A stretch of DNA of 64,000 nt from an uncultured Eubacteriales bacterium (lineage in GTDB: Bacteria; Actinomycetota; Coriobacteriia; Anaerosomatales; JAHIQC01): NCBI GenBank assembly GCA_964565645.1, contig CAZMFQ010000009.1:47391-111390 (forward strand), read 5' to 3'. Under the pieces are notes generated by a model that had not been told where the DNA came from, searched no databases, and saw nothing but the letters and a program-made list of their open reading frames with translations. The translations under genes were made by a program, and so were the position numbers. Numbering within the stretch: the stretch's first letter is position 1; every line of letters begins with the position of its first letter. Below, piece after piece: positions 24,032 to 58,073 of this stretch.

Positions 24032-24040
24032 GGGTGGTCC

Positions 24041-25552
24041 CTACCGCACCAGGTCGAAGGACGGGGTCTGGAACGAAGCGCGGTCCATCTCGTCGAGCAC
24101 CGTGTTGACGATGTCGGTCAGCAGGTTCACCGCGCCGTTGTAGCCGATGATCGGCCGCTTGTGCAGGTGATGACGGTCGAACAGCGGGAAGCCCACGCGT
24201 ACGAACGTCGTGCCCGTGTCGCGCCACAGGAACTTCGCGTTGCTCGGGCCCATGAGCAGGTCGACCGGCTCGGTGAACATGAGTGAGCGCAGGTGCCACA
24301 TGTCCTTCTTGATCCAGACCGTCGCGTCGCTGCCGTAGGGCGAGCTCGCGAGCAGCTCCTCGGCGGCCTTCCTGAACTTCTTGTCGCCGTTGGTGACGAC
24401 GACGTGCACCGGCCTCATGCCGAGCTCGAGCATGAAGGAGAGCAGGCCCAGGACCACGTCCGGGTCACCGACGACTGCCACGCGCTTGCCGTGCACGTAG
24501 GGGTGCGAGTCGATCATGGCGTCGACGGCGCGCCCGCGCTCGAGCTCGAGTTCGGGGCTCGCCGGCATGCCGGACAGTGCGGTGATCCGCTCGATGAGCG
24601 CATCGGTCGCGGTGACGCCGATCGGGAACGGTCCGGCCGCGAACTCCTGCCCCCACTCCTTGGCGATGTACTCTCCGGTCTTGACGCTCGACCAGCGCTG
24701 GAGCGCGAGCGTGCCCTTGGCGTCGACCGCCTTGCGGACGTCGTCGAGCTTGGAACCGCCGGCGGGATACATGTCGTACTCGCCGGTCGCCGGCGCGTCC
24801 ACCACGTCGGAGTAGTCGCCGAGCATCCGGTAGGACACGCCCATCGAGCCGAGGATGTGCTTGATCTCGCGCAGGTTGCCCGAGTAGCCGTCGAAGCCGG
24901 GGATCACGTTGATGGTCCCGTCGTCCGTGGCGGACTTCTCGCCCGCGAGATCCTCGAGGATGCCCTTCATCATCGCGTCGTAGCCGTTGAGGTGGCTGCC
25001 CGAGAAGCTCGGGGTGTGCGCGAACGGCACCGGCATCCCGGCGGGCACTGCCCCCTTGTCCTTGGACTGCTTGATGTACGCACGCAGGTCGTCGCCGATG
25101 ACCTCGGCCATGCAGGTCGTGGAGACGGCGATCATGTCGGGGTGATAGAGCGCATCGGCGTTCTCAAGGCCCTCGATCATGTTGGACAGCCCGCCGAAGA
25201 CCGCCGCGTCCTCGGTCATCGAGCTCGAGACCGTGGCGATCGGCTCCTTGAAGTGCCGCGAGAGGTGGCTGCGGAAGTACGCGGTGCAGCCCTGCGAGCC
25301 CTGCACGAACGGAAGCGTCTTCTCGAACCCGAGCGCGGCCATCACAGCGCCGAGGGGCTGGCAGGCCTTGCAGGGGTTGATCGAGATGGCCTCGCGGGCG
25401 AAGTTGAGCTCCCGGTACTCGTCGGTCTTGGTCCACTCGCTCACCCGGGCGATCTCCTCGGCGTTCGAACCGTTCTCGAACTCCTTCTTGCGCTCGAACT
25501 GCTCCTGGTAGGCGGGCTGGCTGAACAGGGTGTTGTGATCGTGTGTCGGCAT
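24041..25552 (-). CDS. nifK: Nitrogenase MoFe protein beta chain
   Basis: 503 aa. INPCKACQPLGAV..ALGFE.TLPFVQGSQGCTAYFRSHL, typical of NifK. Confidence 0.9.
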   Translation of the reverse strand: MPTHDHNTLFSQPAYQEQFERKKEFENGSNAEEIARVSEWTKTDEYRELNFAREAISINPCKACQPLGAVMAALGFEKTLPFVQGSQGCTAYFRSHLSRHFKEPIATVSSSMTEDAAVFGGLSNMIEGLENADALYHPDMIAVSTTCMAEVIGDDLRAYIKQSKDKGAVPAGMPVPFAHTPSFSGSHLNGYDAMMKGILEDLAGEKSATDDGTINVIPGFDGYSGNLREIKHILGSMGVSYRMLGDYSDVVDAPATGEYDMYPAGGSKLDDVRKAVDAKGTLALQRWSSVKTGEYIAKEWGQEFAAGPFPIGVTATDALIERITALSGMPASPELELERGRAVDAMIDSHPYVHGKRVAVVGDPDVVLGLLSFMLELGMRPVHVVVTNGDKKFRKAAEELLASSPYGSDATVWIKKDMWHLRSLMFTEPVDLLMGPSNAKFLWRDTGTTFVRVGFPLFDRHHLHKRPIIGYNGAVNLLTDIVNTVLDEMDRASFQTPSFDLVR

Positions 25553-25562
25553 CGCGGGCCTC

Positions 25563-27035
25563 CTAGCTCGCCGCGCGCTCGGTGGCGGCGGCTGCCGCTC
25601 CCGGCTTGCGGATGAGCCCCCAGACGGGGCTGTTGACGGTCATGTCCATGTCGCGGGCGAAGACCTTGAACCCGTCGAATCCGTGATACGGGCCCGAGTA
25701 GTCCCACGAGTGCATCTGGCGGAACGGGACGCCCATCTTGTGATACGCGTACTTCTCCTTGACGCCGGAACCGACCAGATCGGGCTTGAGCGCCTTGGTG
25801 AACTCCTCGAGTTCGTAGGGCGTAGCGTCGTCCATGATCACCGCGCCCTCGGGGAGCAGCGGGTAGGTGCGCTTGTACTCGTCGTTGTGGCCGAACTCGT
25901 AGCCCGCGGCGATGATCTCCATGCCGAGGTCCTCGTAGGCGCCCACGACGTGCCGGGGACGCAGGCCACCGACGTAGAGCATCACCGTCTTGCCCTCGAG
26001 GCGCGGCTTGTACTGCGCGATGATCTCGTCCATCTCGGGCTTCATGCGCGCGATGAGCTCCTCTGCGTTGGCCTGGATCGTCTCGTCGAAGTGCGCGGCG
26101 ATCGCTCGGATGGACTGATAGATCTTGGTCGGGCCGAAGAAGTTGTACTCCTCCCACGGGATGCCCCAGGTGTCCTCCATGTACCGGCAGATGTAGTTCA
26201 TCGAGCGGTAGCAGTGGATGAGGTTGAGCTTGGCCTTGGGTGCGTTCGCGAGCTCGGCGAGGGTGGCGTCGCCCGTCCACTGCGCGATGACGCGCAGCCC
26301 CATGTCCTCGAGGATGCGCCTGGAGGCCCAGGCGTCCCCGCCGATGTTGTAGTCGCCGATGATCGTGATGTCGTAGGGCGTGGTCTCGATCTCGGTGGCC
26401 TGCTTCTCGAACACGTGATCGCGGATCGCGTCGTTGGCGATGTGGTGGCCGAGGGACTGCGAGACTCCTCGGAAGCCTTCGCAACGGACCGGCACGACAG
26501 GCTTGCCGTGCTCGGCGGTCTTGGCCTTGGCGACCGACTCGATGTCGTCGCCGATCAGGCCGACCGGGCACTCGGACTGGACGCTGACGCCCTTGGCGAG
26601 CGGGAACAGACCGTCGAGCTCGTCGATGATGGTGGCGAGCTTCTTGTCGCCGCCGTAGACGATGTCACGCTCCTGGTAGTCGCTCGTGAAGTGCATCGTG
26701 CCGAAGGAGTCGACGCCGGTCTCGCCGTTGTAGTAGTTGCGGCGCGACCAGTTGGAGTAGGCACCGCAGCCGACGGGCCCGTGGCTGATGTGGATCATGT
26801 CCTTGACGGGGCCCCACACGACGCCTTTGGAACCGGCGTAGGCGCAGCCGCGGACGGTCATGACGCCAGGACGGGACTTCACGTTGGACTTCACCGCGCA
26901 GCTCGAGCAGTCCGAGGTCGGGTCGTTGGGCTTGACGTGCTTCGCGCGGTCCTTGCGGGTCTTCTCGGGATAGACCTCGAGGACCTCGTCGATGAGCTTC
27001 TGCGTCTGGTTGATCTTGGAGCTCGGTGTCGTCAT
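25563..27035 (-). CDS. nifD: Nitrogenase MoFe protein alpha chain
   Basis: 490 aa. [38 protein letters not shown], typical of NifD. Abuts the nifH stop. Confidence 0.9.
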
Positions 27036-30401: not shown

Positions 30402-30754
30402 TGGTGGAGGTGGCGAGAGTCGAACTCGCGTCCACGATACATACTCGGGAAGCATCTCCAGGCTCAGTCACCGGTGGAGTCTCGGAGCGTACGTTACCCG
30501 GTGACCCGCGGCGTACGATCCATAGCGGTTCGATCTTGAGTGACGTCATACCGCCCACGTCCGTCACAGCACTCCCCTTTAATGGCGCCTAGCCGGTGGC
30601 GGGGAGGTCCACCGGGTCGGCGTCGCTGCTCTATTTAGGCAGCGAGGGCGAAATCATTGTCGACGTCTATGCGTCGGTACCCCTGTTTAACGAGGCGAGG
30701 AGACCTCGGCCTGCTTCTTCCGTCGAACGTATCATGTCGAAACCGGTCACCCCC
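30402..30754 (-). ncRNA. ssrA: tmRNA (SsrA)
   Basis: Minus-strand 5'-GGGGGTGACCGGTTTCGACATG... and 3'-...GGACGCGAGTTCGACTCTCGCCACCTCCACCA. Acceptor stem GGGGGTG/CACCTCC with a G3:U pair. The internal tag reading frame ends ...DNDFALAA-TAA (30635-30661). Confidence 0.92.
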
Positions 30755-43453: not shown

Positions 43454-44386
43454 CTACTTGCCGAGGAGCCCCTTGGCGGCAGCGGCGATATCGGCGGCCG
43501 TCAGACCGAAGTGCGCCATGAGCTCGGCCGGGTCGCCGCTCGTGCCGAAGACATCGCGCACACCCACGAGCGCCATGGGCGTCGGGGCCTTCTGCGAGAG
43601 CAGTTCGGCTACGGCGGAACCCATGCCGGCGATCACCGAGTGCTCCTCGCACGTCACGACGGCGCCGGTCTTGCGGGCGCTCGCGACAAGCGTGGCCTCG
43701 TCGAGCGGCTTGATGCTCGCCACATCGATGACCTCGGCGGAGACGCCCTCCTGTGCGAGCAGGTCCGCGGCGGCGAGCGCCTCGGCGACCATCACGCCGC
43801 ACGCAGCGAGCGTCACGTCGGAGCCCTCACGCAGCACGTAGGCACGGCCGAGCTCGAACTCGAAGTCATCGGGGTGCACCTGCGGGACAGCGGCGCGGCC
43901 GAGCCGCACGTAGAACGGCCCCGGGGTCTTTGCGGCCAGGCGCAGTGCGGCCTTGGCGGCGTTGAAGTCCGCGGGCACGAGCACCCGCATCCCGGGGAGC
44001 ACGCGCATCAACGCGAGGTCCTCGATCATCTGGTGGCTACCGCCGTCGGGGCCTACGGTGATACCCGAGTGCGTCGGCGCGAGCTTCACGTCGAGGTCGG
44101 AGTAGCACACGGTGTTGCGCACCTGGTCGTACGCGCGACCGGTGGCGAACACGGCGAAGCTGCCGGTGAAGGCGACCTTGCCCGCGACAGCGAGCCCGGC
44201 CGCGGTGTCGATCATGTTCTGCTCGGCGATACCCACGTTCACGAAACGGTCGGGGTAGGCCTTGGCGAACGATGCGGTGGTCGTGGACTTGGAGAGGTCG
44301 GCCTCGACCGCGACGACATCGACGCCGTCAGCGGCGAGTTCGATGAGCGTCTCGCCGAACGCCTCGCGGGTTGCACGCTTGCTCAT
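43454..44386 (-). CDS. tkt: Transketolase, C-terminal (pyrimidine-binding) subunit
   Basis: 310 aa. Split-type transketolase with FVNVGIAEQNM and GPDGGSHQMIEDLALMR. Confidence 0.9.
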   Translation of the reverse strand: MSKRATREAFGETLIELAADGVDVVAVEADLSKSTTTASFAKAYPDRFVNVGIAEQNMIDTAAGLAVAGKVAFTGSFAVFATGRAYDQVRNTVCYSDLDVKLAPTHSGITVGPDGGSHQMIEDLALMRVLPGMRVLVPADFNAAKAALRLAAKTPGPFYVRLGRAAVPQVHPDDFEFELGRAYVLREGSDVTLAACGVMVAEALAAADLLAQEGVSAEVIDVASIKPLDEATLVASARKTGAVVTCEEHSVIAGMGSAVAELLSQKAPTPMALVGVRDVFGTSGDPAELMAHFGLTAADIAAAAKGLLGK

Positions 44387-44389
44387 CGA

Positions 44390-45235
44390 CTAGTTCCCTT
44401 CCTCGATGGTACAGGCCAGTTCACCCGCGGCGATCTCGCACTGCTCGGCCGAAGGCGCCGCGCCGTGCCACTCCGCTTTGTCCTCCATGAACGAGACGCC
44501 CTTGCCCTTGACGGTGCTCGCGACGATGACCGTCGGCGCACCCTCGGCGGTGTCCGCCTGGGCAAACGCTGCCAACAGCTGCTCGACGTCATGTCCGTCG
44601 GCGCCGATGACGTTCCAGCCGAACGCGCGGAACTTCTCGCCGACCTCGCCGAGGTCCATGACATCGGCGCACGAGCCGTCGATCTGCAGGTTGTTGTTGT
44701 CCACGATCGCGACCACGCGGTCGAGTTTGTTGTGGGCCGCGAACATCGCGGCTTCCCAGACCTGACCCTCCTGGAGCTCTCCATCGCCGAGGAGACAGAA
44801 GACCCGGGAGGTCACGTTGCCGTCGGCACGAAGCCCCAGAGCGATGCCGTTGGCGATCGAGAGTCCCTGGCCGAGCGAGCCGGTCGAGACCTCGACGCCT
44901 GGGGTCTTCTTGCAGTCCGGGTGGCCCTGGAGCATCGAACCGAGCTTGCGCAGGGTCGACAGGTGCTCGCGGCCGAAGTAGCCCGCCTCGGCGAGCGCCG
45001 CATACAGCACCGGCGCGGCGTGGCCCTTGGAGAGCACGAAACGGTCGCGTCCGGGCATCTTGGGATCGGCCGGGTCGTGGTTCATCACACCGAAGTAGAG
45101 TGTAGCGACGATGTCCGCGGCCGAGAGCGAGCCGCCGGGGTGGCCCGAACCGGCCAGGCCGATCATCTCCACGATGTCAGCGCGCATCCGCTGCGCCGTA
45201 CGCTCGATGGTGGGGATATCCGAACGTGGTTCCAT
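44390..45235 (-). CDS. tkt: Transketolase, N-terminal (TPP-binding) subunit
   Basis: 281 aa. GSGHPGGSLS, SKGHAAP, GSLGQGLS, GDGELQEG. Confidence 0.9.
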   Translation of the reverse strand: MEPRSDIPTIERTAQRMRADIVEMIGLAGSGHPGGSLSAADIVATLYFGVMNHDPADPKMPGRDRFVLSKGHAAPVLYAALAEAGYFGREHLSTLRKLGSMLQGHPDCKKTPGVEVSTGSLGQGLSIANGIALGLRADGNVTSRVFCLLGDGELQEGQVWEAAMFAAHNKLDRVVAIVDNNNLQIDGSCADVMDLGEVGEKFRAFGWNVIGADGHDVEQLLAAFAQADTAEGAPTVIVASTVKGKGVSFMEDKAEWHGAAPSAEQCEIAAGELACTIEEGN

Positions 45236-45270
45236 GCTGCGCTCCGGTTCGATCGGCGTCGGATGGGTGA

Positions 45271-47010
<1,740 letters not shown>

Positions 47011-47025
47011 ATGAAGGGAGCCATC

Positions 47026-47457
47026 ATGCGCATCACACAAGGCGCGTTCTCGTTCCTCCCCGATCTGACCGACGAGGAGATCACGGCACAGATCGAGTAC
47101 TGCCTGCGCAACGAGTGGGCGGTCTCGGTCGAGTACACCGACGACCCGCATCCCCGCAACGTGTACTGGGAGATGTGGGGGCTGCCGATGTTCGACCTCA
47201 AGGATGCCGCCGGCATCATGGTCGAGGTCCGCGCGTGCCGCGAGGCCTTCCCGAACCACTATGTGCGCGTCACCGCGTTCGACGCGACCCACGGGGTCGA
47301 GTCCGTCGCGCTCTCGTTCATCGTGAACCGACCTGCCGAGGAGCCGGGCTTCCGCCTCTCCCGTTCCGAGGGCACCGGCCGCATGCAGCACTACACCACC
47401 GAGTCCTACGCCGTGACCCGCGCCCCGTCCGGGATGCGCTATCCGGCCGGGAAGTAG
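47026..47457 (+). CDS. cbbS: RuBisCO small subunit (red-type, extended C-terminus)
   Basis: [47 protein letters not shown]. Start at 47026 after AAGGGAG; an ATG at 47011 is also open. Confidence 0.9.
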
Positions 47458-47464
47458 GCTTGCC

Positions 47465-48418
47465 GTGAGCGACACACGCGACAGCGAGCAGCGCGCGGAC
47501 GCCGCGACCGACGTCGCGGCCGACGCCGACGAGCGCATCGATCTGGCGGCCGAATACGAGGCAGCCGGCATCGGCGAGGTGCTCGACGCGCTCGACCGCG
47601 ACCTCGTGGGCCTCGTGCCGGTGAAACGCCGCGTGCGCGAGATCGCCTCGTTGCTGCTCGTGGAGCGCGTCCGTCAGCGCGTCGGGCTCGCCGCCGAGCC
47701 GCCGTCGCTGCACATGAGCTTCACCGGCAACCCGGGCACCGGCAAGACGACGGTCGCCATGCGGATGGCCGAGATGCTCCACCGCCTGGGATATGTGCGC
47801 AAAGGCCATGTGGTGGCCGTGACCCGCGACGACCTCGTGGGCCAGTACATCGGGCACACGGCACCCAAGACCAAAGAGGTGCTCAAGCGGGCCATGGGCG
47901 GCGTGCTGTTCATAGACGAGGCGTACTTCCTGTACCGGCCCGAAAACGAGAAGGACTACGGACAGGAAGCAATCGAGATCCTGCTGCAGGTCATGGAGAA
48001 CCAGCGCGACGACATCGTCGTGATACTGGCCGGCTACCAGGACCGCATGGAGAAGTTCTTCGAGAGCAATCCCGGGATGTCCTCGCGCATCGCACACCAT
48101 GTCGAGTTCCCCGACTACACCGACGCCGAGCTGCTCGAGATCGCGACCCGCATGCTTCAGACCTGGAACTACCGCTTCGACGAGGGCGCGCAGGCGGCGT
48201 TCGCCGAGTACCTGGCGATCCGACGCGACCGGCCGCACTTTGCCAATGCGCGTTCGGTGCGCAACGCGCTCGACCGCATCCGGCTCCGTCAGGCACTGCG
48301 GCTGTTCGACGAGCGCGACGCACCCATGACCGCCGACGACCTCGCGATCATCCGCGAGCCCGAGGTACGCGGTAGCCGGCTGTTCGACGAGCCCGACGGA
48401 AACCCCGAGGAGGCGTAA
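47465..48418 (+). CDS. cbbX: AAA+ RuBisCO activase CbbX
   Basis: 317 aa, GTG start. Walker [12 protein letters not shown], Walker B VLFIDEAY. Directly follows cbbLS. Confidence 0.9.
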
Positions 48419-48421
48419 GCG

Positions 48422-49495
48422 ATGCTGCTCACCAACCGCGCGACCCTGACCCAGTACCTCATCGAGCGCCGTCGCCACCGTCCCGAGGCGACCGGTGACT
48501 TCAACGAGCTCGTCCTCCAGGTCGCGCTCGTGTGCAAGAGCATCGCGAGCAAGGTCGCCCACGGATCGCTGCACCAGCTCCTGGGCGGGTCACAGGGCGA
48601 GAACGTGCAGGGCGAGGACCAGAAGATGCTCGACGTGCTCGCCAACGAGCTGTTCATCCGCACCACCGAGTGGGCGGGCGTGGTCGCGGGCATGGCTTCC
48701 GAGGAGATGGAAGCGCCCTACACGCTTCCCGATGGCATGCCGCGCGGCAAGTACCTGCTGTTGTTCGACCCGCTCGACGGCTCGAGCAACATCGACGTCA
48801 ACGTCGCCGTCGGCTCGATCTTCTCGATCCTGTGCGCGCCGCACGCCGGGCAGGACCCCGCGCTCGAGGACTTCCTGCAGCCCGGCGTGACCCAGGTCGC
48901 CGCCGGCTACGCGATCTACGGGCCCGCGACGATGCTCGTGCTCTCGGTGGGCCAGGGCACCGTCGGGTTCACACTCGACCCCGAGACCGGCGAGTTCTTT
49001 CTCACGCACCCCGAGCTGCGCGTGCCCGACTCCACCCATGAGTTCGCGATCAACGCCTCCAACAGCCGTTTCTGGGAGCCGCCGATCAAGCGCTACGTCG
49101 ACGAGTGCCTCGCGGGCAAGACCGGTCCGCGCGGCAAGGACTTCAACACGCGCTGGATCGCCTCCCTCGTGGCCGAGACCCACCGCATCCTGATGCGCGG
49201 CGGCGTGTTCCTCTACCCGCGCGACACGAAAGACCCCACGCGTGCCGGCCGCCTGCGCCTGCTCTACGAGTGCAACCCGATCGGCATGATCATTGAGCAA
49301 GCCGGGGGCCGCGCGAGCACCGGCGAGGGCCCCGTGCTCGAAGTGGCGCCGGACTCGTTGCACCAGCGCATCGGGTTCGTGTTCGGCTCCGCCGAAGAAG
49401 TCGAGCTCATCGAGCGCTACCACGCCGAGCCCGCCGACGAGGACACGTCCGAGTTCAGCGAGTCGCTCTTCAACAGCCGAGGACTGTTCCGCTAG
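48422..49495 (+). CDS. cbbF: Fructose-1,6-/sedoheptulose-1,7-bisphosphatase, class 1
   Basis: 357 aa. The TLTQYLIE N-terminus and FDPLDGSSNID metal-binding motif. Confidence 0.9.
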   Translation: MLLTNRATLTQYLIERRRHRPEATGDFNELVLQVALVCKSIASKVAHGSLHQLLGGSQGENVQGEDQKMLDVLANELFIRTTEWAGVVAGMASEEMEAPYTLPDGMPRGKYLLLFDPLDGSSNIDVNVAVGSIFSILCAPHAGQDPALEDFLQPGVTQVAAGYAIYGPATMLVLSVGQGTVGFTLDPETGEFFLTHPELRVPDSTHEFAINASNSRFWEPPIKRYVDECLAGKTGPRGKDFNTRWIASLVAETHRILMRGGVFLYPRDTKDPTRAGRLRLLYECNPIGMIIEQAGGRASTGEGPVLEVAPDSLHQRIGFVFGSAEEVELIERYHAEPADEDTSEFSESLFNSRGLFR

Positions 49496-49540
49496 ACGAC
49501 CTGACCGCGGCGTACGCGCCCGTTCGAAAGGACGCCCACG

Positions 49541-50422
49541 ATGTCCGAGAAGCATCCCATCATCGCGATCACCGGCTCGTCAGGCGCCGGCACCACGACC
49601 GTCCAGCGGACCTTCGAGCAGATCTTCCGGCGCGAGGACATCACCCCGGCCATCGTCGAGGGCGACAGCTTCCACCGCTACGACCGCGCCGAGATGAAGG
49701 CCCTACTGGCCGAGGACCAGAAGCAGGGAGGCCACCTGAGCCACTTCGGCCCGGAGGCGAACCGCTTCGAGGACCTCGAGGCGCTGTTCAAGACCTACAG
49801 CGAGTCCGGCTCCGGCTCGGCGCGCAAGTACCTCCACGACGCCGAGGAGGCGGAGCCCTTTGCGCAGGAGCCGGGGACCTTCACGCCCTGGACTCCCCTG
49901 CCGCCCGGCTCGGACCTGCTGTTCTACGAGGGACTGCACGGCGCGGTCGTCACCGACAGCGTGAACGTCGCGCAGTACCCGGACCTGCTGATCGGCGTGG
50001 TGCCGGTCATCAACCTCGAGTGGATCCAGAAGATCAACCGCGACTGCCGCTACCGGGGCTACTCGACCGAGGCGGTCACCGACGTGATCCTGCGGCGGAT
50101 GCCCGACTACGTGCACTACATCTGCCCGCAGTTCACCAAGACGCACGTGAACTTCCAGCGCGTGCCCATCGTGGACACCTCCAACCCGTTCACCTCGCGC
50201 TCGATCCCGGCGCCCGACGAAAGCATGCTCGTGATCCGGTTCGCCGATCCCAAGGGAATCGACTTTCCCTACCTGCTCTCGATGTTGCACGATTCGTTCA
50301 TGTCGCGCGCCAACACCATCGTGGCGCCCGGCGGCAAGATGGACCTCGCGATGCAACTCATCTTCACCCCGTTCATCCTGCGCATGAACGAACGGCGCAA
50401 GAAGGCACTCGCACGCGGCTGA
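49541..50422 (+). CDS. cbbP: Phosphoribulokinase
   Basis: 293 aa. HPIIAITGSSGAGTTT P-loop, EGDSFHRYDR. Confidence 0.9.
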   Translation: MSEKHPIIAITGSSGAGTTTVQRTFEQIFRREDITPAIVEGDSFHRYDRAEMKALLAEDQKQGGHLSHFGPEANRFEDLEALFKTYSESGSGSARKYLHDAEEAEPFAQEPGTFTPWTPLPPGSDLLFYEGLHGAVVTDSVNVAQYPDLLIGVVPVINLEWIQKINRDCRYRGYSTEAVTDVILRRMPDYVHYICPQFTKTHVNFQRVPIVDTSNPFTSRSIPAPDESMLVIRFADPKGIDFPYLLSMLHDSFMSRANTIVAPGGKMDLAMQLIFTPFILRMNERRKKALARG

Positions 50423-50434
50423 GAGGACACAGAC

Positions 50435-51478
50435 ATGGCGCTCGTCTCCGTACGGCAACTGCTCGACCACGCGGCCGAGAACGGCTACGGCCTTCCCGCA
50501 TTCAACGTCAACGACATGGAGCAGATACAGGCGATCATGCAGGCCGCCGAGGAGACGGACAGCCCCGTCATACTCCAGAGCTCGGCCGGCGCGCGCACGT
50601 ACGCGGGCGAGCCGTTCCTGCGCAAGCTGCTGGAGGCCGCTGTCGAGACCTGGCCCAAGGTCCCGGTCGCGATGCACCTCGACCACGGGGCGAGCCCCGC
50701 GATCTGCCAGCGCGCGATCCGCTCGGGGTTCCAGAGCGTGATGATGGACGGTTCGCTGCTCACCGACGCCAAGACGCCAGCTTCCTTCGAGTACAACGTC
50801 GAAGTCACCCGCAAGGTCGTGGAGATGGCGCACGCCGTGGGCGTGACGGTCGAAGGTGAGCTCGGAGTCCTCGGCTCACTGGAGACCGGCGAGGCCGGCA
50901 AGGAAGACGGTGTGGGCGCCGAGGGCGAGCTCTCGCGCGAGATGCTGCTCACCGACCCCGAGCAGGCGGCGCAGTTCGTGGCAGCCACCGGCTGCGACGC
51001 GCTCGCGATCGCGATCGGCACGAGCCACGGCGCGTACAAGTTCACGCGCAAGCCCACCGGCGACATCCTCGCGATCGACCGCGTGAAGGAGATTCACGCC
51101 CGCATCCCCGAGACGCATCTCGTGATGCACGGCTCATCGAGCGTGCCCCAAGAGTGGCTCGAGATCATCCGCGAGTACGGCGGGCAGATGCGTGAGACCT
51201 ACGGCGTACCGGTCGAGGAGATCGTCGAGGGCATCAAGCACGGTGTGCGCAAAGTGAACATCGACACCGACATCCGGCTCGCGATGACCGGAGCCATGCG
51301 CCGTGCGATGCATGAGGACCCGAGCCAGTTCGACCCGCGCGCGTTTCTCAAGGCCGCCCGCAACGCGGCCAAGGACCTGTGCGCCGAGCGCTACGAGGCC
51401 TTCGGGGCTGCGGGCATGGGCAGCCGCATCGTGCCCGTGCCGCTCGGGGAGATGGCGGCGCGGTACGAGCGGGGGTAG
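50435..51478 (+). CDS. cbbA: Fructose-bisphosphate aldolase, class II
   Basis: 347 aa. [35 protein letters not shown]. Confidence 0.9.
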
Positions 51479-51509
51479 CGAAGGGACTCACCGCGATCGC
51501 AGTAGATTC

Positions 51510-51926
51510 TCATTCGCTAACCAGGAGATACCAATGCTCTGCGAGTCGCTCAACGCTTGTGCCAGTAGGCGCTGCTGCGTCGTCTGCGGTGTAGTAGATC
51601 TCCCGCGCAGAGCCAAGAATCCCCCTGAATGTGTAGAAACCTACAGCGTCAGCGTTGCCGCCATTCTCAGACACGAACACTTCGCCATCCGCCGATAGCG
51701 TGGCGAACTCCTTGGGCAGTCGCATGTGGTCGAAGCTGAGCACGGATGTCCCGTGGTCACTCAGTTCATCGTCTACCCACTGAACGGCTGCTTCGTACTC
51801 GTCGCGGTTGTCAAAGAACTGCTGCTTGTCCCGATCATCCTGAAGGCCGGCGCAACCCGCACAGAACGCTAGAAGTAAGACCGCCAGCGCCAGCTTGGAG
51901 GCTGCGGCTGCGGAATGCCGTTGCAT
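51510..51926 (-). CDS. Predicted lipoprotein, candidate immunity/partner of the Rhs toxin tip
   Basis: Signal peptide with lipobox (LAVLLLAFCAGC). Start at ATG 51926, or 51956 overlapping the Rhs stop. Lies in an AT-richer region (a hand-counted line at 52201-52260, in the adjacent toxin-tip CDS, gave 50% G+C). Confidence 0.55.
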   Translation of the reverse strand: MQRHSAAAASKLALAVLLLAFCAGCAGLQDDRDKQQFFDNRDEYEAAVQWVDDELSDHGTSVLSFDHMRLPKEFATLSADGEVFVSENGGNADAVGFYTFRGILGSAREIYYTADDAAAPTGTSVERLAEHWYLLVSE

Positions 51927-51948
51927 CCGCCGGGCCTCACCCAAGCTC

Positions 51949-54549
51949 TCACGCATACAGCCACCATCCGTAAGATTTCCCGTTGCCCGCACGCACGTAC
52001 ATGTTGGGCAGTCCCCCGCGCGCCGCTCGATATACGACCCTAGCTCGGGGCGAGTACGCGTATGTGTCGTACCCATAGTCAATCCAGAAGTTGTTGTCTA
52101 TTTCGTGGCGAACCTGCTCCCAGGTCCGACTACCATTCACCCCGACCAGGGATGCGATGCCCTTTGCCCCTCCGCGGGGGAACATGACTGATGAGAGCAC
52201 GTAGCCATAGTGTATGTTGCCCCAATCATCGAGGCTGATGTTCTGTCGGCCGAACTTGAACACATGATCTGTGCGATGTCCCGAATACTTATTCGCGACG
52301 TCGGCCTTGAAGTCCCAAGGCCCACCTGTCTGTACCAGGCCCTTGAACCACAGGAGCCAGCCCCCGAACGCCTGTGCGATGTTGTAGTGAAGGAGATTGT
52401 ACATCAGCTTCTCGCTGGCATACCCCGCATTGACCTGCATCATCTCCCACATCTTCTCCCATTCATCGACTCTGGGACGCAGTGTGACGGCCTTTGCCCA
52501 CATCCCGCTCGGATCCACGGCGCCTACCGGATCCCCACCACAGTACTGATATGCGCTCTCCTCACCGTCCGCCTTCGCAGGGTCCTTCGACAGGAGCTGT
52601 CTCGTGGCCGGATCGTAGGTCCTTGCTGACAAGTAGTGCAGCCCCGAGTGTCCATCAAAGCAGTAGCCCGCGTAGCGCAGCGGCTGCCTCTCGAGGATCC
52701 TAGCTGCTGTCACGGCATCGATCGAACCAGCAGCGACCGACGTGCATGCTTCTGACCGGTGCGTCCCCCACGCGTCGTAGCCGTAGGCGGCGAAGGGACT
52801 CCCGCTCGTATTCCGTAGCTCGACCACATCGCCTCGGTCGGTCGTCACCATCACGAATGGAACGGCAGCATCCTGTTCGCTTCGGTACACACCAGCGTAC
52901 GGACGTCCCTGACCGTCATACAGGTATGAGATCTTCCACACGTCGACGGCGCTCGTCCCTTCGATCGTGCGGGTCGCCGCAAGCGATAGAAGCGACAGGC
53001 CCTCGTAGACGTAGCAGGTGTCGGTGGTGGTGGTGCCGTTGGCGGAAGGCTCGATCACCACTGAGGAGATTCGCTTCCCGGCGGCATCATACCCGTACGT
53101 CGCTGAGACTCCCTGCGACGTCGCGTAGCTCGCGAGACGTCCCGTCCCGGTGTAGCCAAACACCCGCTCTGTCGGGTTGGAAACAGGTCCCTGCGCCGTC
53201 CTCCAGCCGTTAGCCGAGTCGAACGCGAACGTGGTCTCGACGCTCCCGCCGACCTTGATGTTCTCCAGCCTGTTGCCTGCTCCATAGTGATAGGTCCTCG
53301 TGAGGACCCCGACCGTCTCGGTGGCGATGTTGCCCGCTGCATCGAACACGTAGGTCGCAGACCCCGACGTAGTATCGGATGCCAGTCGCCCAGTCGCGGT
53401 GTACGTGTACGCAGCCGCAACGGAGTTCGCGAGCGGGAGTGTGCCTGTGTCGGCAATCTTGCGCCCGCTTGAGTCGTCGTACTCGTATCCGATGGTAGAA
53501 GTCTCGATCGACGTCGAGAGCAGCTTGCCGTCTTCATCCGCAAACGTACGAACGAAATCGGTATCCCCCACCATCCAACCGGTCTCGCGTCTCACTGTAT
53601 CGGTCCCTGTCACCGAGCGCGTGAGTGTGGAAGTACCGTCAAGTGCGGTCACGCGCGAGATCTCGACCCCGCTCGCATCGACGGTCGCGGTGGTCGTCAC
53701 TCCGCCGTAGCGCGTCACCAGTGTCGTTGATTGCCCCGGAGCCGACGGGTAGATGAACTCCCGGTGGACTCCCGTGAGCCCGTCGTCGGTCGCGGCGGTG
53801 CGGCCAAGTGAATCGTATGTCGTATCCGTGTGGCGCACGTCGCCCGCAGCAGTGGTATGCACTTCTTCGCACGTCTGTCCGAACTCATCGAAACGGCTGC
53901 GCACGGCAGCGCCATCAGGATCGGTTGTCGACAGCACGTGGCCCGCTGGGTCGAAGGCGGTTCGCGTCGTCTTGCCCGCCACCGTGCTCGCGGTGACGCG
54001 ACCGGCGGCATCGCAGGTGCTTGAAGACTCGATCCCGTCCGCATCGACAGTGGACAGCACCTGTCCGAGCACGTTGTAGCTCGTGGTCGAGGCGGTGGGG
54101 TTGCCCGCACCAGTGACAGAGATCTGGCGCGAAAGCAGGTCGAAGGTGAAAGTGGTGCTCACGCCGTCGGCCGTCGTGCTCGAAACCGTGCGACCCCCCA
54201 GGTCGTTTCGGGTAGTGGTGGTACCGTCCTGCGTGGTCGTCGAGACTTGATTGCCGGCATCGTCGTAGACGTAAGTCGCATACGTGCCATCGGGGTTGTC
54301 GACTCTCGCTGTCGTGCCATCAGCATTGTAGGTATAGCGCGTCGGGGTGGTCGTGCCTGGAGCGGTAGAACTCAAGAGCTGCCCGTATGCGTCATAGCTC
54401 GAGATGCTCGCATTTGCCGCGATGTGGGAATCGAGCCCCTCGCCCCACTGCGCCACGACGTTACCGCGTGCATCGTATCTGCTCTCTGAGGGCAGACCGC
54501 CGGTGAGCGCGTCGTCGGAGCTCAGCTCACGTCCGAGCCCGTCGAACAC
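51949..54549 (-). CDS. Rhs/YD-repeat polymorphic toxin, N-terminally truncated (orphan or pseudogene)
   Basis: Numerous YD-type repeats (YDAYGQL, YNADGT, YDDAGN, YDSLGR, YDAAGK, YLYDGQGRP). Core-end motif GGDPVGAVDPSGMW at 52498-52539. A 182-aa variable C-terminal domain follows. Rhs-like sequence starts at VFDGLGRELS (GTG 54549) with no N-terminal secretion or targeting domain. Confidence 0.8.
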   Translation of the reverse strand: MFDGLGRELSSDDALTGGLPSESRYDARGNVVAQWGEGLDSHIAANASISSYDAYGQLLSSTAPGTTTPTRYTYNADGTTARVDNPDGTYATYVYDDAGNQVSTTTQDGTTTTRNDLGGRTVSSTTADGVSTTFTFDLLSRQISVTGAGNPTASTTSYNVLGQVLSTVDADGIESSSTCDAAGRVTASTVAGKTTRTAFDPAGHVLSTTDPDGAAVRSRFDEFGQTCEEVHTTAAGDVRHTDTTYDSLGRTAATDDGLTGVHREFIYPSAPGQSTTLVTRYGGVTTTATVDASGVEISRVTALDGTSTLTRSVTGTDTVRRETGWMVGDTDFVRTFADEDGKLLSTSIETSTIGYEYDDSSGRKIADTGTLPLANSVAAAYTYTATGRLASDTTSGSATYVFDAAGNIATETVGVLTRTYHYGAGNRLENIKVGGSVETTFAFDSANGWRTAQGPVSNPTERVFGYTGTGRLASYATSQGVSATYGYDAAGKRISSVVIEPSANGTTTTDTCYVYEGLSLLSLAATRTIEGTSAVDVWKISYLYDGQGRPYAGVYRSEQDAAVPFVMVTTDRGDVVELRNTSGSPFAAYGYDAWGTHRSEACTSVAAGSIDAVTAARILERQPLRYAGYCFDGHSGLHYLSARTYDPATRQLLSKDPAKADGEESAYQYCGGDPVGAVDPSGMWAKAVTLRPRVDEWEKMWEMMQVNAGYASEKLMYNLLHYNIAQAFGGWLLWFKGLVQTGGPWDFKADVANKYSGHRTDHVFKFGRQNISLDDWGNIHYGYVLSSVMFPRGGAKGIASLVGVNGSRTWEQVRHEIDNNFWIDYGYDTYAYSPRARVVYRAARGGLPNMYVRAGNGKSYGWWLYA

Positions 54550-54554
54550 ATGCG

Positions 54555-54806
54555 TCAGTTGTCGATGTTGCCAAGGAAGTCGATGTCGCGGGTGGGTCGG
54601 CCAAGTGGAGTGCCCCACGCGCGAAGCATGATCGCGCCCTTCACGATGAGGCGATCTGCCCACTCCGTTTGTGCGAGCCGGTAGAGGAACCGTTCGATCG
54701 CGAAGTACTGGAGCACCTGGTCGTATGAGTCCCCGCTCGCCTTCGCTTCGTTCAGTAGGCGCGCACGAACGGACGCGGGTACGTTCTTCAGTTCCCGCTG
54801 ACTCAT
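54555..54806 (-). pseudogene. abiEii: 3'-truncated abiEii (DUF1814 nucleotidyltransferase toxin) fragment
   Basis: 83 aa (NVPASVRARLLNEAKASG..YDQVLQYFAIERFLYRL....ADRLIVKGAIML..WG....RPTRDIDFLG) matches only the N-terminus of a family I remember as about 280-300 aa. ATGA overlap with abiEi. Confidence 0.7.
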
Positions 54807-55420
54807 TCCATCGCCTCAAAGTACGGACGCACGACCTTGGAGACACGGTCAATCTCAGCGTAGTCCATGATTGCATCGCGTGTGGCTTTGCGGCTGCGCA
54901 CCGTCTCTCGGAGTGCCTCGAGAGCGACATCGAGCCCGATCTTGTTCCTGAACTTGAAGCAGTCGGCAACCGTCTTGGCAGGGTTGAACACCCTCACCGT
55001 GGTGCCGCCGATGGAGTGCTCTTCAATCCCCGCCGTGAGTGCATCGCCGGACATTCGATACACGCGAACGGGCGGGTAGTCGAGCTTGGGCCGCCTATCC
55101 TTTGGCCCGATGGCGATGCTCACTCCGGAGGGAATCTGAGTTCCGATCTCATGGAAATCCAGCGCGCTCACGAGGCAGAGCACTGCGCCTGGCGCGCGCT
55201 CCGCGACCGCAACAACGTCGTACTTGCTCGGCCCTTGGAGTTCAGTGAGTCGGTACACACCTCGAGTAAGCTGCTCGAGAAGCTCCGCATCCCGCATTCC
55301 ATACAGCGTCGAGTAGTGCACACCTCGCTCCGCGGCCTCGCGCGTCCTGAGCGTGCCGCCGGCTTGCCTGAACACATCCGCGGCGTGCCTGATCGCATTC
55401 TCTGATGGAAGTCGCTTCAT
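54803..55420 (-). CDS. abiEi: AbiEi-family (type IV TA) antitoxin / transcriptional regulator
   Basis: GTLRTREAAERGVHYSTLYGMRDAELLEQLTRGVYRL winged-helix N-terminus and a C-terminal ADCFKFRNKIGLDVALEAL motif. Start at 55420; the ORF extends to 55477. Confidence 0.75.
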   Translation of the reverse strand: MKRLPSENAIRHAADVFRQAGGTLRTREAAERGVHYSTLYGMRDAELLEQLTRGVYRLTELQGPSKYDVVAVAERAPGAVLCLVSALDFHEIGTQIPSGVSIAIGPKDRRPKLDYPPVRVYRMSGDALTAGIEEHSIGGTTVRVFNPAKTVADCFKFRNKIGLDVALEALRETVRSRKATRDAIMDYAEIDRVSKVVRPYFEAME

Positions 55421-55532
55421 GAGGTCATTGTGATAGATATGTCGGACATTGTGAACATCTTCCGACGTTTTCATCACACGTATGGCGCGTCGTGATGGAC
55501 ATGCTCGTAGGCGAACGGCTGCCGCGGATCCG

Positions 55533-55967
55533 CTAGGGCAGCAGTTCGATCGCCGCAGCGAAGGTCGGGCGGTAGCTCGCGAGTCGGCTGTCGAAGCTCA
55601 GGATGCGCGCGCAGCGCTGTCGCTCACATGCGGCAAGCAACGTGCAGTCCGCGAACCCGAATCCCGTGTCCGCATAGCGCAGATCGATCTCGCGGGCGAT
55701 CTCGAGCAGTTCGGCGTCGGCCTGGACGATCTCGATTCCCGAACGCATGAACGCATCCCAGAACGAACGCTGGGCGTCGATTCCCACGCGCGCACCAAGA
55801 AAGCCCATGGTCTCGCCGAGGATAGTCGCAGGAACGCCTATGCCGCCGGGTGCATGCGACTGCAGTGCGTCGGCCGCAGTGGCGTGCAGTGACTCACGCG
55901 GACGAGCGGCGGCGATGAGCACGCTGGAATCCGCGAGCGCCCTCACGGGCGGTTCTCCCGCTCCCAC
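55533..55967 (-). CDS. vapC: PIN-domain toxin VapC (second copy)
   Basis: 144 aa. LADSSVLIAA at the N-terminus, GFADCTLLA and ILSFD acidic motifs. Overlaps the upstream antitoxin gene by 25 nt. Confidence 0.7.
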   Translation of the reverse strand: MGAGEPPVRALADSSVLIAAARPRESLHATAADALQSHAPGGIGVPATILGETMGFLGARVGIDAQRSFWDAFMRSGIEIVQADAELLEIAREIDLRYADTGFGFADCTLLAACERQRCARILSFDSRLASYRPTFAAAIELLP

Positions 55968-56215
55968 TCGCCGTCGGGCTCGAAGTACTCGGCCAGGCCG
56001 TCATCGACATGCAGGGCGAGGTCAGATTCGGGCCGGGCATCTTCGATGCAGCCGACGAGTGCCGAGATACTCACGGCACGTTCCTCGGCATGCGTGGTTC
56101 GATACTCGGCGATCGCCTCACGGGCGATCTCGGCCATCGAGGTGCCGCGCGACTCCGCCTCGCGGGCGAGGTAGCGGTGCAGCTCCTCCGGCAGATACAT
56201 CATGGTCTTCTTCAT
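55943..56215 (-). CDS. vapB: Ribbon-helix-helix antitoxin (VapB-type)
   Basis: Start at ATG 56215 (MKKTMMYLPEELHRYLAREAESRGTSMAEIAREAI), an RHH pattern. Confidence 0.65.
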   Translation of the reverse strand: MKKTMMYLPEELHRYLAREAESRGTSMAEIAREAIAEYRTTHAEERAVSISALVGCIEDARPESDLALHVDDGLAEYFEPDGEWERENRP

Positions 56216-56224
56216 GGTGACACG

Positions 56225-56272
56225 AGCATAGCACCAGCGTATGACATATGTCACTCATATATGTCATACGCT
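56225..56272 (-). promoter_or_regulatory. Promoter/operator of the second vapBC: TGACAT-N17-TATGCT overlapped by a perfect 14-bp inverted repeat
   Basis: IR AGCGTATGACATAT (56236-56249) / ATATGTCATACGCT (56259-56272) with a 9-nt spacer. On the minus strand the -35 is TGACAT (56253-56248) and the -10 is TATGCT (56230-56225), preceded by TGC. Confidence 0.5.
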
Positions 56273-56288
56273 CGACGGGGTCTCGCCG

Positions 56289-57191
56289 CTACCCGCGCGA
56301 CTCCTTGAAGCCCTCGCCGATCGCCTCGTGCACATCGGAGATGATGAGCAGTGCCCGCGGATCGAGCGTGTTGATGATCGACTTGAGCGCATCGATCTCG
56401 GTCCGCGACACGACCACGAACAGCATCTCGCGGTCTTCGCCCGAGTACACGCCGCGCGCGCTGATGGCGGTACACCCCCGACCCAGGTCGTTGATGATCG
56501 CACTGGAGATGCGCTGCGATTCCTCGGAGATGATGAACGCGGCCTTCTCGACGGACAGGCCCTCGAGCACCAGGTCGATGGTCGCGCCGGAGACGAAGAT
56601 CGCGACCGCGCCATAGAGCGCGAGCTCGGGGCCGAACTTGAGGGCCGCGATGATGGTGACCACCGCGTCGGTGATGAGCATGAGTTGGCCCACGCCGAGC
56701 GGCACGCGCTTGGAGAGCAGCTGCGCGATGATGTCGGTGCCGCCGGTGTTGCCGCCCGCCTTGAACACGAGGCCGAGTCCGAGTCCGCACACCGCACCGC
56801 CGTAGAGCGCCGCGAGCAGGAAGTCATGCTCGGCGAGGTGCGGCGTGATCGGGGCGAACAGGTCGATCGCCAACGAGAGCCCGACGATGCCGTAGATCGT
56901 GCGCGCCGCGTAGCGCCAGCCGCGCGCCCGAAGCGCGAGCAGCAGCAGCGCGACGTTCATCACGAGCATCTGGATACCGATGGGCAGCGTGAGCCCGACG
57001 TCCTTGGCGGTGTAGTAGATGACGGTCGCGAGGCCGGAGACACCGCCGGCAGCGATCTTGTTCGGGATCAGGAACGCATCGAGGCCCCAACCCGTGAGCA
57101 CGATGCCCACGGTGATGAGCGTGTAGTCGCGCAGCCAGCGGTTGCGCAGGATGGCGTCGGGGCGCAGCTTGCGCGCGGCACTCGCGATCAT
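56289..57191 (-). CDS. YitT-family membrane protein (DUF2179 C-terminal domain)
   Basis: 300 aa. FLIPNKIAAGGVSGLA motif, five to six TM helices, C-terminal soluble domain. Confidence 0.8.
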   Translation of the reverse strand: MIASAARKLRPDAILRNRWLRDYTLITVGIVLTGWGLDAFLIPNKIAAGGVSGLATVIYYTAKDVGLTLPIGIQMLVMNVALLLLALRARGWRYAARTIYGIVGLSLAIDLFAPITPHLAEHDFLLAALYGGAVCGLGLGLVFKAGGNTGGTDIIAQLLSKRVPLGVGQLMLITDAVVTIIAALKFGPELALYGAVAIFVSGATIDLVLEGLSVEKAAFIISEESQRISSAIINDLGRGCTAISARGVYSGEDREMLFVVVSRTEIDALKSIINTLDPRALLIISDVHEAIGEGFKESRG

Positions 57192-57985
57192 GCGCGCTCA
57201 CCCCTCGACGGCGGCTCCCACGTAGGGTCGATCCACTCCCCGCCCATGTTCAGCCGAGGACGTGCACGCCGAGCGAGCAGGTACTCGAGCACACTGCTCG
57301 CGTGGCGGTTCACGATATCGGCCTCGGTGAAGCCGGCCTCCTCGGCCACCGCGATTGCGTGGTCGAAGCGACCGACGTGCAGGTGATAGTGCGCGTCGGA
57401 GTTGATGGCGACGTAGCAGCCCGCCTCGCGGGAAAGCCCCACGAGCTCGCGCTCCTTGTGAGAATGCTCGGCACGGCTCGACGAGGCGTGGAAGGAGTGG
57501 TCGTTGATCTCGAGGATGACGCCGTGCGCCAGTGCGGCGGCCACCACGCGTTCCAAGTGCACCGGGAACTCGGCGCTGCCGGGATGCGTCACCATGTCCA
57601 CGAGCGGGTTGGCCAGGACGCGCTCGATGGCCTCGGTGTTGCGCTCGATGTCGCCGTCGTCAAAGCCGGTGAGCGGGTGGAAGCCGACGCCCACGAAGTC
57701 GAGCTTCTCGAGGACGACATCGGGCAGGTCGAGGCCGTTCTCCTCGGTAGGCGAAAGGTTCGCCTCGCAGCCTTTGAGAATGCGCACCCCGTCCATGACC
57801 GCGGGCAGCGCCTTGGAGTTCCAGAAGTACCACGGGTGCGACCCTTGCGGGACCGCGGGGCCGTGGTCGGTGATGGCGATCAGTTCGAGGCCGCCCACGA
57901 CCGCCCCCCGAACCATCTCGGTGAGCGTCGAATAGGCATGCCCTGAGGCGATCGTGTGGGTGTGCAGATCGGCGAGCAGTCTCAT
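57188..57985 (-). CDS. PHP-domain phosphoesterase (YcdX-like)
   Basis: 265 aa. DLHTHTIASGHAYS, ITDHGP, and a HP...DMVTHPG metal-ligand pattern. Confidence 0.8.
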   Translation of the reverse strand: MRLLADLHTHTIASGHAYSTLTEMVRGAVVGGLELIAITDHGPAVPQGSHPWYFWNSKALPAVMDGVRILKGCEANLSPTEENGLDLPDVVLEKLDFVGVGFHPLTGFDDGDIERNTEAIERVLANPLVDMVTHPGSAEFPVHLERVVAAALAHGVILEINDHSFHASSSRAEHSHKERELVGLSREAGCYVAINSDAHYHLHVGRFDHAIAVAEEAGFTEADIVNRHASSVLEYLLARRARPRLNMGGEWIDPTWEPPSRGERA

Positions 57986-58073
57986 GGGTACCTCACAGGC
58001 GGATCGGTGCGGCCGGGCGCCGCCGATAGCACTCTAGCAGACACCCGGCATGGCCTGCGGTCGGCACGCGAAC

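Follow-up and report, generated by a model that had tools for sequence, protein, structure and literature searches.

The stretch of DNA analysed here, which will be referred to as the window, comprises 64 kb of contig CAZMFQ010000009.1 (assembly GCA_964565645.1) of an uncultured Eubacteriales bacterium. On its minus strand it carries a long open reading frame (ORF) for a Rhs protein, whose C-terminal toxin tip is assigned to the polymorphic toxin type 44 (Ntox44) family and is followed directly by a small gene for a predicted exported protein (Table 1). Reading of the minus strand bore out this arrangement as described in the initial annotation. The core ends in ...YCGGDPVGAVDPSGMW (also read as ...GGDPVGAVDPSGMW) with its tryptophan codon at 52500-52498, followed by a C-terminal domain of 182 amino acids (aa) and a TGA stop codon at 51951-51949. 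Both starts proposed for the downstream ORF, which ends at 51510, were likewise found, ATG 51956 overlapping the Rhs stop by 8 nucleotides (nt) and ATG 51926 leaving a gap of 22 nt. The public gene call uses ATG 51926, which is preceded by GGTGAGG, and predicts a protein of 138 aa; initiation at ATG 51956 would add 10 aa.

The carrier clearly is a Rhs/YD protein. Its repeats were recognized by the Pfam model RHS_repeat (E = 2.6e-24), and a complete Rhs-associated core (TIGR03696, positions 1-76 of 76, 68 bits against a cut-off of 32.5) was detected at ORF residues 731-823 (approximately 52501-52779), ending in the DPxG...DPxG pattern DPVGAVDPSGMW. The shell of the Rhs protein in the window is incomplete and has no N-terminal domain for export or delivery, and the NCBIfam model RHS_core scored 78 bits against its cut-off of 2000 bits. 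The public Rhs product of 866 aa starts inside the YD repeats and is colinear with residues 1794-2646 of its closest full-length relative, a protein of 2,646 aa (P0003), at 50% identity. This relative possesses an N-terminal hydrophobic signal-like sequence, the Pfam domains CBM96 and DUF6531 and a full Ntox44 match. Rhs homology detected by tblastn begins at 54543, and neither a further piece of rhs nor a homologue of the immunity gene was found by tblastn elsewhere in the 64-kb window. An ORF of 1,006 aa starting at TTG 54969 was considered as the true gene and rejected, as its first 140 codons overlap the frames of the truncated abiEii (abiEii') and abiEi and are without Rhs homology. Judged from the alignment with P0003, the rhs of the window is the last third of a gene for approximately 2,650 aa and is without an export signal. 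With the signal peptide and approximately two thirds of the shell missing, the fragment can probably not be delivered in its present form. The locus is an orphan Rhs module. The initial annotation had noticed neither that the Ntox44 tip sits on a 5′-truncated gene, nor the broken abiEii abutting it, nor that the surrounding block is missing from a related genome (both described below).

The affiliation of the tip had been suggested in the initial annotation on the basis of a pattern WDxK...GNxxYG, and the Pfam profile scan confirmed it. PF15607 (Ntox44) matched the tip alone with 33.5 bits (E = 5.8e-8, gathering cut-off 24) and the whole ORF with 30.8 bits. The match on the tip spans profile positions 1-58 of 104 only, the profile being aligned over positions 1-100 in P0003. 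When 1.8 billion representatives were scanned in full with phmmer, 28 relatives of the tip were obtained, the best of which was P0003 with 46% identity over the tip, and PF15607 was present in all 20 proteins recovered by a profile search. No match to the tip was obtained in a word-index homology search or in NCBIfam and PHROGs scans, and PDB sequence and profile searches matched no solved structure. On this evidence the tip is a member of the Ntox44 family.

The WDFK and GNIHYGY motifs pointed out initially are both present and represent two of the three family signatures, DxK (D62-F-K64) and GNxxxG (G93-N94-I-H-Y-G98). W61, D62, K64, N94, G98 and G142 show little or no variation among the 28 relatives (W61, D62, K64 and N94 at least 90% conserved, G98 invariant), and the tip has all of them. 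The third signature, DxxxD, is absent in its strict form. The tip reads H131/E132...N135, and the corresponding stretch HEIDNNFWIDYGY is a variant of the family signature DxxxD...I..G in which E132 and N135 replace the two aspartates. The tip shares asparagine at this position with the four relatives closest to it, and aspartate is found in more distant members. With the curated threshold exceeded and the other two motifs in place, we treat the Asn/Glu replacement as a probable subgroup variant.

To the family literature the tip conforms in fold as far as can be predicted. Zhang et al. 2012 described Ntox44 as all-alpha with the motifs DxK, GNxxxG and DxxxD and listed no immunity family for it; its ribonuclease (RNase) label stems from a generic argument, the 'preponderance of nucleases', and the Pfam description as well as later genome surveys repeat 'predicted RNase'. 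In the work of Ma et al. 2017 other Rhs tips were tested, Ntox44 not being among them. An AlphaFold2 model of the tip based on a 15-sequence alignment (predicted local distance difference test, pLDDT, 82.7; predicted template modelling score, pTM, 0.82) shows seven helices and only short strands, consistent with an all-alpha fold. This model was used instead of the single-sequence prediction, which reached a pLDDT of 33 only. Foldseek comparison of the model with the PDB (best E = 0.6) and with viral structure models (best E = 0.7) gave TM-scores below 0.3 in both cases, and no RNase fold was among the PDB matches. Since the predicted fold resembles nothing in the PDB or the viral library, it supports neither an RNase nor any other known toxin mechanism.

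The initial annotation had placed a protein with a lipobox signal peptide in the immunity position. Export or membrane anchoring of the downstream protein is solidly predicted; its lipobox turned out to be near-canonical only. The N-terminus (MQRHSAAAASKLALAVLLLAFCAGCAG) contains R3, K11 and the hydrophobic region LALAVLLLAF, followed by C22-A-G before Cys25 (codon 51854-51852), and the hydrophobic 17-mer of residues 12-28 has a mean Kyte-Doolittle hydropathy of 2.53. With Cys25 as position +1, glycine at −1 and alanine at −2 fit a lipobox, and position −3 is occupied by Cys22. Cys25 aligns with a cysteine in the homologues from three other contigs (L001, L002 and L003), of which the L003 protein matches the pattern applied, [LVI][ASTVI][GAS]-C or its PROSITE-type equivalent. 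A lipoprotein, lipid-anchored at Cys25, is the probable form of the protein.

The downstream protein had no match in Pfam, NCBIfam, PHROGs or the sequences of the PDB, and a PDB search with a profile of its family returned noise only. In a word-index search of the public protein collection it found only itself, in one contig. Relatives became apparent from the position behind the toxin. The proteins directly following the tips in L001 (the contig of P0003), in L002 and L003 (metagenome-assembled genomes of Actinobacteria) and in L024/L035 (gut Firmicutes) are 30-35% identical to it and share a common soluble domain with the pattern LP...G.V...F...Y. A hidden Markov model built from five family members recovered two more from metagenomes (L069 and L082, E approximately 1e-19 to 1e-20), again beside Ntox44 tips. 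In all these loci the gene lies directly downstream of the toxin and is co-inherited with the tip type. Family members carry either an N-terminal signal or anchor with the aligned cysteine or, in the gut Firmicutes, three transmembrane (TM) helices before the same domain, and positive-inside reasoning on these anchors and helices places the conserved domain outside the cytoplasm.

Chiefly from this pairing, which is maintained in different carriers and taxa, we infer that the downstream gene is the cognate immunity gene and belongs to a separate, as yet unnamed family. The initial annotation had kept open that it might not be the immunity gene, and an unrelated exported accessory or cell-surface factor beside the toxin would agree with the lack of a match to any known immunity family. 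We consider this quite improbable: homologues are located behind the most similar Ntox44 tips of four further lineages, keeping their position in distant taxa and with different toxin N-termini, the gene and rhs overlap by 8 nt or are 22 nt apart depending on the start codon, and there is no other candidate ORF between the tip and the edge of the island described below.

To see what generally follows Ntox44, 40 GTDB genome loci were examined for the ORF after the toxin, 35 of which had a usable one, and a TM call was made for at least one strongly hydrophobic 17-mer according to a hydropathy threshold. A strongly hydrophobic segment was found in all 35 downstream ORFs, compared to 47% of control ORFs from the same loci. 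According to the threshold call, 24 have only one segment, located at the N-terminus, and the other 11 are multi-pass. Small multi-pass membrane proteins account for about 10 of the 35 neighbours, and 11 are DUF5412 (PF17428) proteins with an N-terminal anchor, a family that did not match the downstream protein of the window. The same neighbour classes were present in 61 further metagenome loci, together with lipoproteins of 400 aa showing a canonical LAGC lipobox. On Thermoleophilia-type contigs (L049:2317-3540 and L050:768-1961, also L004) the Ntox44 tip is followed by a lipoprotein of approximately 400 aa with a canonical LAGC lipobox; it contains repeats resembling BNR/Ycf48-type beta-propellers and would be another exported neighbour class.

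The family is distributed over Firmicutes, Actinobacteria, Proteobacteria, Spirochaetes and corals, and the neighbours retain their character in different delivery contexts. In a type VI secretion system (T6SS) cluster on an Enterobacter plasmid, a PAAR-Ntox44 fusion is followed by an N-terminally anchored protein; when E. coli genomes were searched with this locus, only the PAAR part matched. Photobacterium pPHDD1 encodes a PAAR and Ntox44 pair with an anchored protein downstream, in Streptomyces an Ntox44 protein whose long N-terminal region is not of the Rhs type precedes a three-TM protein, and a lipobox protein lies downstream of Ntox44 in a Gram-negative locus (L044). Some Ntox44 proteins of Firmicutes are themselves small Sec-secreted proteins. 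A small Sec-secreted Ntox44 protein of 268 aa, P0042, occurs on 21 contigs; in L042 (2704-2985, 3001-3807) a 93-aa three-TM protein lies directly upstream, not downstream, of it. Horizontally acquired Ntox44 genes bearing signal peptides are known from corals.

Taken together, we hold it rather probable that the locus is an orphan polymorphic-toxin module consisting of an exported immunity partner, an envelope-acting Ntox44 toxin and a Rhs fragment that cannot be delivered. The partner would be the cognate immunity protein, exported and tethered, probably by a lipid anchor at Cys25, on the outer face of the cytoplasmic membrane, where its soluble domain of approximately 110 aa would bind Ntox44 tips coming from neighbouring cells and block them outside. 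The target of the toxin would lie in the envelope, where it is accessible from outside the cytoplasm, and would not be cytoplasmic RNA. At this locus the module would most likely provide immunity-only protection and/or a spare tip for recombination.

The envelope target is suggested by the placement of immunity outside the cytoplasm under Sec/Rhs, type VII secretion system (T7SS) and T6SS delivery, and the secreted Ntox44 forms of corals and Firmicutes fit a target reachable from outside. The T6SS cases represent the strongest argument. A PAAR-Ntox44 protein folds in the cytoplasm of its producer and the sole adjacent candidate immunity protein is exported, so that an active cytoplasmic RNase would kill the producer. 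A further-reaching proposal, to which we give somewhat less than even chances, is that Ntox44 is not an RNase but an enzyme of a new all-alpha type of fold, directed from outside the cytoplasmic membrane against a component of the envelope (for example a lipid-linked wall precursor, a membrane lipid or a wall polymer) and delivered by Sec/Rhs, T7SS and T6SS routes. It would be countered by at least four unrelated kinds of exported or membrane immunity proteins, proposed to be the unnamed family described here, DUF5412, the small multi-pass membrane proteins and the beta-propeller-like lipoproteins.

The main rival explanation holds that Ntox44 is an RNase acting in the cytoplasm and that the exported partner catches the toxin at the surface or blocks its entry route, in either case ahead of its passage through the membrane. 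According to a 2026 review citing Wang et al. 2025, TseR of Yersinia pseudotuberculosis (PAAR + Ntox44) has RNase activity that depends on divalent cations, and is toxic in HeLa cells. Zhang et al. 2012 proposed a block of uptake for membrane-located immunity proteins; in their catalogue exported or lipobox immunity proteins are rare, the secreted ones are linked to surface-acting toxins, and Imm65, the partner of Tox-JAB-1, is the sole lipobox-anchored one. Interception at the surface suits a Sec-exported Rhs protein, whose tip never folds in the producer cytoplasm, and P0003 with its signal-like N-terminus would be of this kind. It agrees poorly with the T6SS loci, as the Enterobacter PAAR-Ntox44 protein is made and folded in the producer cytoplasm with an anchored protein as its only adjacent candidate immunity. 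Moreover, the RNase label was originally a default guess, and the predicted model of the tip is unlike any RNase fold in the PDB. On balance we regard a cytoplasmic RNase as unlikely. The extracytoplasmic target that the initial annotation had tentatively proposed on the basis of the lipoprotein is reinforced, as a site of action or neutralisation, by the hydrophobic neighbours in 35 of 35 loci and contested by the report on TseR.

Several further points weigh against an envelope-acting toxin with exported immunity as the explanation of the locus. In L041, two 107-aa paralogues in tandem (1410-1733 and 2380-2703), both without a hydrophobic segment, lie behind a stand-alone Ntox44 gene; they perhaps serve another subgroup of Ntox44 as cytoplasmic immunity proteins. 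On a Sinorhizobium plasmid, the ORF located 379 nt downstream of Ntox44 does not encode a membrane protein. The hydropathy threshold is a simple one, the choice of ORF was made partly by eye in high-GC loci, and the loci counted are not phylogenetically independent. With cysteine at −3, the lipobox of the window is non-canonical and fails the patterns applied. The change of the conserved aspartate of the third motif to asparagine in this subgroup could mean altered or lost activity, and a predicted fold without a PDB match backs no particular activity. Finally, a promoter and terminator scan of the locus revealed no expression signals that stood out.

Table 1: Features of the Rhs-Ntox44 locus and of the island surrounding it (positions within the window).
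Feature	Positions	Strand	Basis
Rhs C-terminal toxin tip, divergent Ntox44 (PF15607)	51952..52497	-	Pfam, phmmer, profile search, AlphaFold2
Putative immunity gene, 138 aa	51510..51926	-	ORF listing; public gene call (P0001) identical
Predicted signal peptide, residues 1-24 of downstream protein	51855..51926	-	Sequence reading, Kyte-Doolittle hydropathy
WDFK motif, tip residues 61-64 (family DxK signature)	52306..52317	-	Conservation in relatives
GNIHYGY motif, tip residues 93-99 (family GNxxxG signature)	52201..52221	-	Conservation in relatives
Third motif HEIDNNFWIDYGY, tip residues 131-143	52069..52107	-	Alignment of relatives
5′-truncated Rhs shell: YD repeats and Rhs-associated core, end DPVGAVDPSGMW	52498..54549	-	RHS_repeat, TIGR03696
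Truncated abiEii, 83 codons	54555..54806	-	Pfam AbiEii
abiEi antitoxin/regulator, apparently intact	54803..55477	-	Pfam AbiEi_4, E 2.1e-9
vapBC pair	55533..56254	-	PIN-domain VapC 55533-55967; ribbon-helix-helix antitoxin 55943-56254
Strain-specific island, 4,809 bp	51480..56288		Alignment to related contig L046 and composition

The Rhs fragment and its partner gene lie within an island. Positions 44000-51479 and 56289-57986 of the window align to a related metagenomic contig (L046) at 87-88% identity, and in L046 the two aligned blocks, the fba side and the yitT side, stand 5 nt apart. The intervening 4,809 bp are missing from L046 and thus represent an insertion specific to this genome, located between the convergent stops of fba and yitT. 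The G+C content of the island is 61.8% compared to 67-69% in the flanks, and its genes have a G+C content at third codon positions (GC3) of 65-79% compared to 87-94% for the flanking genes; the island is horizontally acquired. Within it, the tip (57.0% G+C, GC3 71%) and the downstream ORF (58.5%, GC3 65%) are lower in G+C than the Rhs core (63.3%, GC3 75%), and the cbb genes of the flank reach 66-68% (GC3 90-94%). The gradient from the tip over the core to the core genes reported in the initial annotation therefore stands. The value of about 50% given there for the tip does not, as it goes back to counts of individual 60-nt lines, and these vary between 48% and 67% within the tip. In the entire 64 kb the tip is the 546-nt stretch of lowest G+C content, with equally low sliding windows amounting to 0.08%. 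The tip and its partner gene are compositionally foreign.

Upstream of the Rhs fragment a second broken gene was found. The AbiEii fragment covers positions 1-43 of the 238 positions of the Pfam profile only and ends with ...GNIDN and a TGA codon, and the called GTG start codon of the Rhs fragment follows 5 nt further on (54547-54560). The abutting of two broken genes marks a deletion or recombination junction, and a single event appears to have removed approximately 200 codons of abiEii and approximately 1,790 codons of rhs. This double truncation is what one would expect if the whole block were a decaying remnant without current function, its tip and partner being intact only because the event is recent. 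The absence of conspicuous promoter- or terminator-like signals and the occurrence of the downstream protein in a single contig in the word-index search point in the same direction. Nevertheless, the frames of 866 and 138 codons are both uninterrupted, and the near-invariant family residues of the tip are all present. Orphan immunity genes of polymorphic toxin loci are often retained, as they protect against neighbours. A mere remnant hence appears unlikely to us, to about the same degree as the cytoplasmic RNase.

The junction also bears on a possible intracellular role of the fragment. Its translational coupling to the abiE operon is conceivable and it is located among VapBC and AbiE, so that translation from the GTG 5 nt past the abiEii′ stop might yield a toxin-antitoxin-like module acting within the cell. 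An orphan Rhs of Salmonella has been reported as a type II toxin-antitoxin module (PMC7043789). The exported partner could not neutralise a toxin in the cytoplasm, and we judge such a function of the locus to be very improbable.

The remaining part of the island is occupied by abiEi and the vapBC pair. The PIN domain of VapC was clearly identified (Pfam, E = 1.2e-13), and matches of the ribbon-helix-helix antitoxin were weak. The likely vapB start is closely preceded by an inverted repeat of 14 nt without mismatches (AGCGTATGACATAT ... ATATGTCATACGCT, 9-nt spacer; 56236-56272); the repeat overlaps a promoter-like site from 56254 to 56225 and is probably the VapB operator. No flanking direct repeats were found at the edges of the island. 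An imperfect inverted repeat of 19 nt (51469-51487 and 56280-56298) spans both edges, and may be an intergenic hairpin between fba and yitT that was split by the insertion, since its arms, if conserved in the island-free relative, would lie close together there.

The flanks of the island contain genes of central metabolism. A complete Calvin-cycle operon (cbbL, cbbS, cbbX, fbp, prk and fba; 45589-51478, plus strand) is adjoined by a split-type transketolase (44390-45235, minus strand), and the gene order in L046 is identical. Three consecutive nitrogenase component 1-type genes (21398-27035, minus strand) include an 877-aa two-domain protein that by appearance is a NifE-NifN-type fusion. Based on the nitrogenase-type and Calvin-cycle genes, the organism is probably a diazotrophic autotroph. 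The window further carries chemotaxis genes, a sigma-54 activator and a transfer-messenger RNA gene (30402-30754, minus strand; Rfam RF00023, 158 bits), which is not adjacent to the island. A relative's contig encodes a CW_binding_2 protein. The contig of the closest full-length relative (L001, CAYOSP010000010.1) has a G+C content of 65.7% and is labelled 'uncultured Eubacteriales', a label or binning that is perhaps unreliable.

Taken by itself, the locus is ordinary. It is a Rhs toxin-immunity cassette of the orphan type, situated in a small island of defence and toxin-antitoxin genes and composed of known kinds of elements together with an unnamed immunity family. Its value is that of a pointer to Ntox44, a family annotated as 'predicted RNase' for which the founding catalogue gives no immunity partner. 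The exported and membrane neighbours found across delivery contexts, with the exceptions of L041 and the Sinorhizobium plasmid, offer a testable challenge to this annotation. If the site of action is the envelope, the current annotation of a large antibacterial effector family is wrong, an envelope-targeting activity associated with a new fold is still to be discovered, and the reported RNase activity of TseR needs re-examination.

Among known systems, the carrier is closest to the Sec-exported wall-associated Rhs/YD toxins such as WapA of B. subtilis, the tips of which are tRNases with cytoplasmic immunity proteins. The full-length relative P0003 resembles them in its signal-like N-terminus, carbohydrate-binding and DUF6531 domains, YD shell, core, variable tip and immunity gene, whereas the copy of the window retains the last 866 aa only and is without a signal peptide. 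With the orphan rhs modules of Salmonella, E. coli and Dickeya it has in common a 5′-truncated rhs that keeps core, tip and immunity gene. Classical orphans, however, sit just downstream of a full-length rhs; here none is present in the 64-kb window, and it is a broken abiEii to which the fragment is joined.

Exported immunity is well known for envelope-acting toxins, as in TelC-TipC of Streptococcus intermedius (a lipid II phosphatase), colicin M-Cmi, Tse1-Tsi1 and Tse3-Tsi3. Their common logic is that the immunity protein is kept where the toxin acts, either periplasmic or anchored to the outside of the cytoplasmic membrane. The tip is not a member of these toxin families, as it showed no sequence or fold similarity to solved structures and no profile hit. 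Imm65 is lipobox-anchored like the putative partner of the window, which differs by having no Pfam match and a different toxin partner. DUF5412 proteins occupy the same place after Ntox44 tips and have an N-terminal anchor, but the protein described here belongs to a separate unnamed family. To the Ntox44 family including TseR, finally, the tip is comparable in exceeding the Pfam threshold, in its DxK and GNxxxG motifs, in the predicted all-alpha fold and in the C-terminal position of the toxin. It differs in matching only the first 58 of 104 profile positions, in Glu/Asn in the third motif and in a Sec-type Rhs carrier instead of PAAR and T6SS. TseR is reported to be an RNase, whereas the predicted localisation of the immunity partner in the window argues for action or neutralisation outside the cytoplasm.

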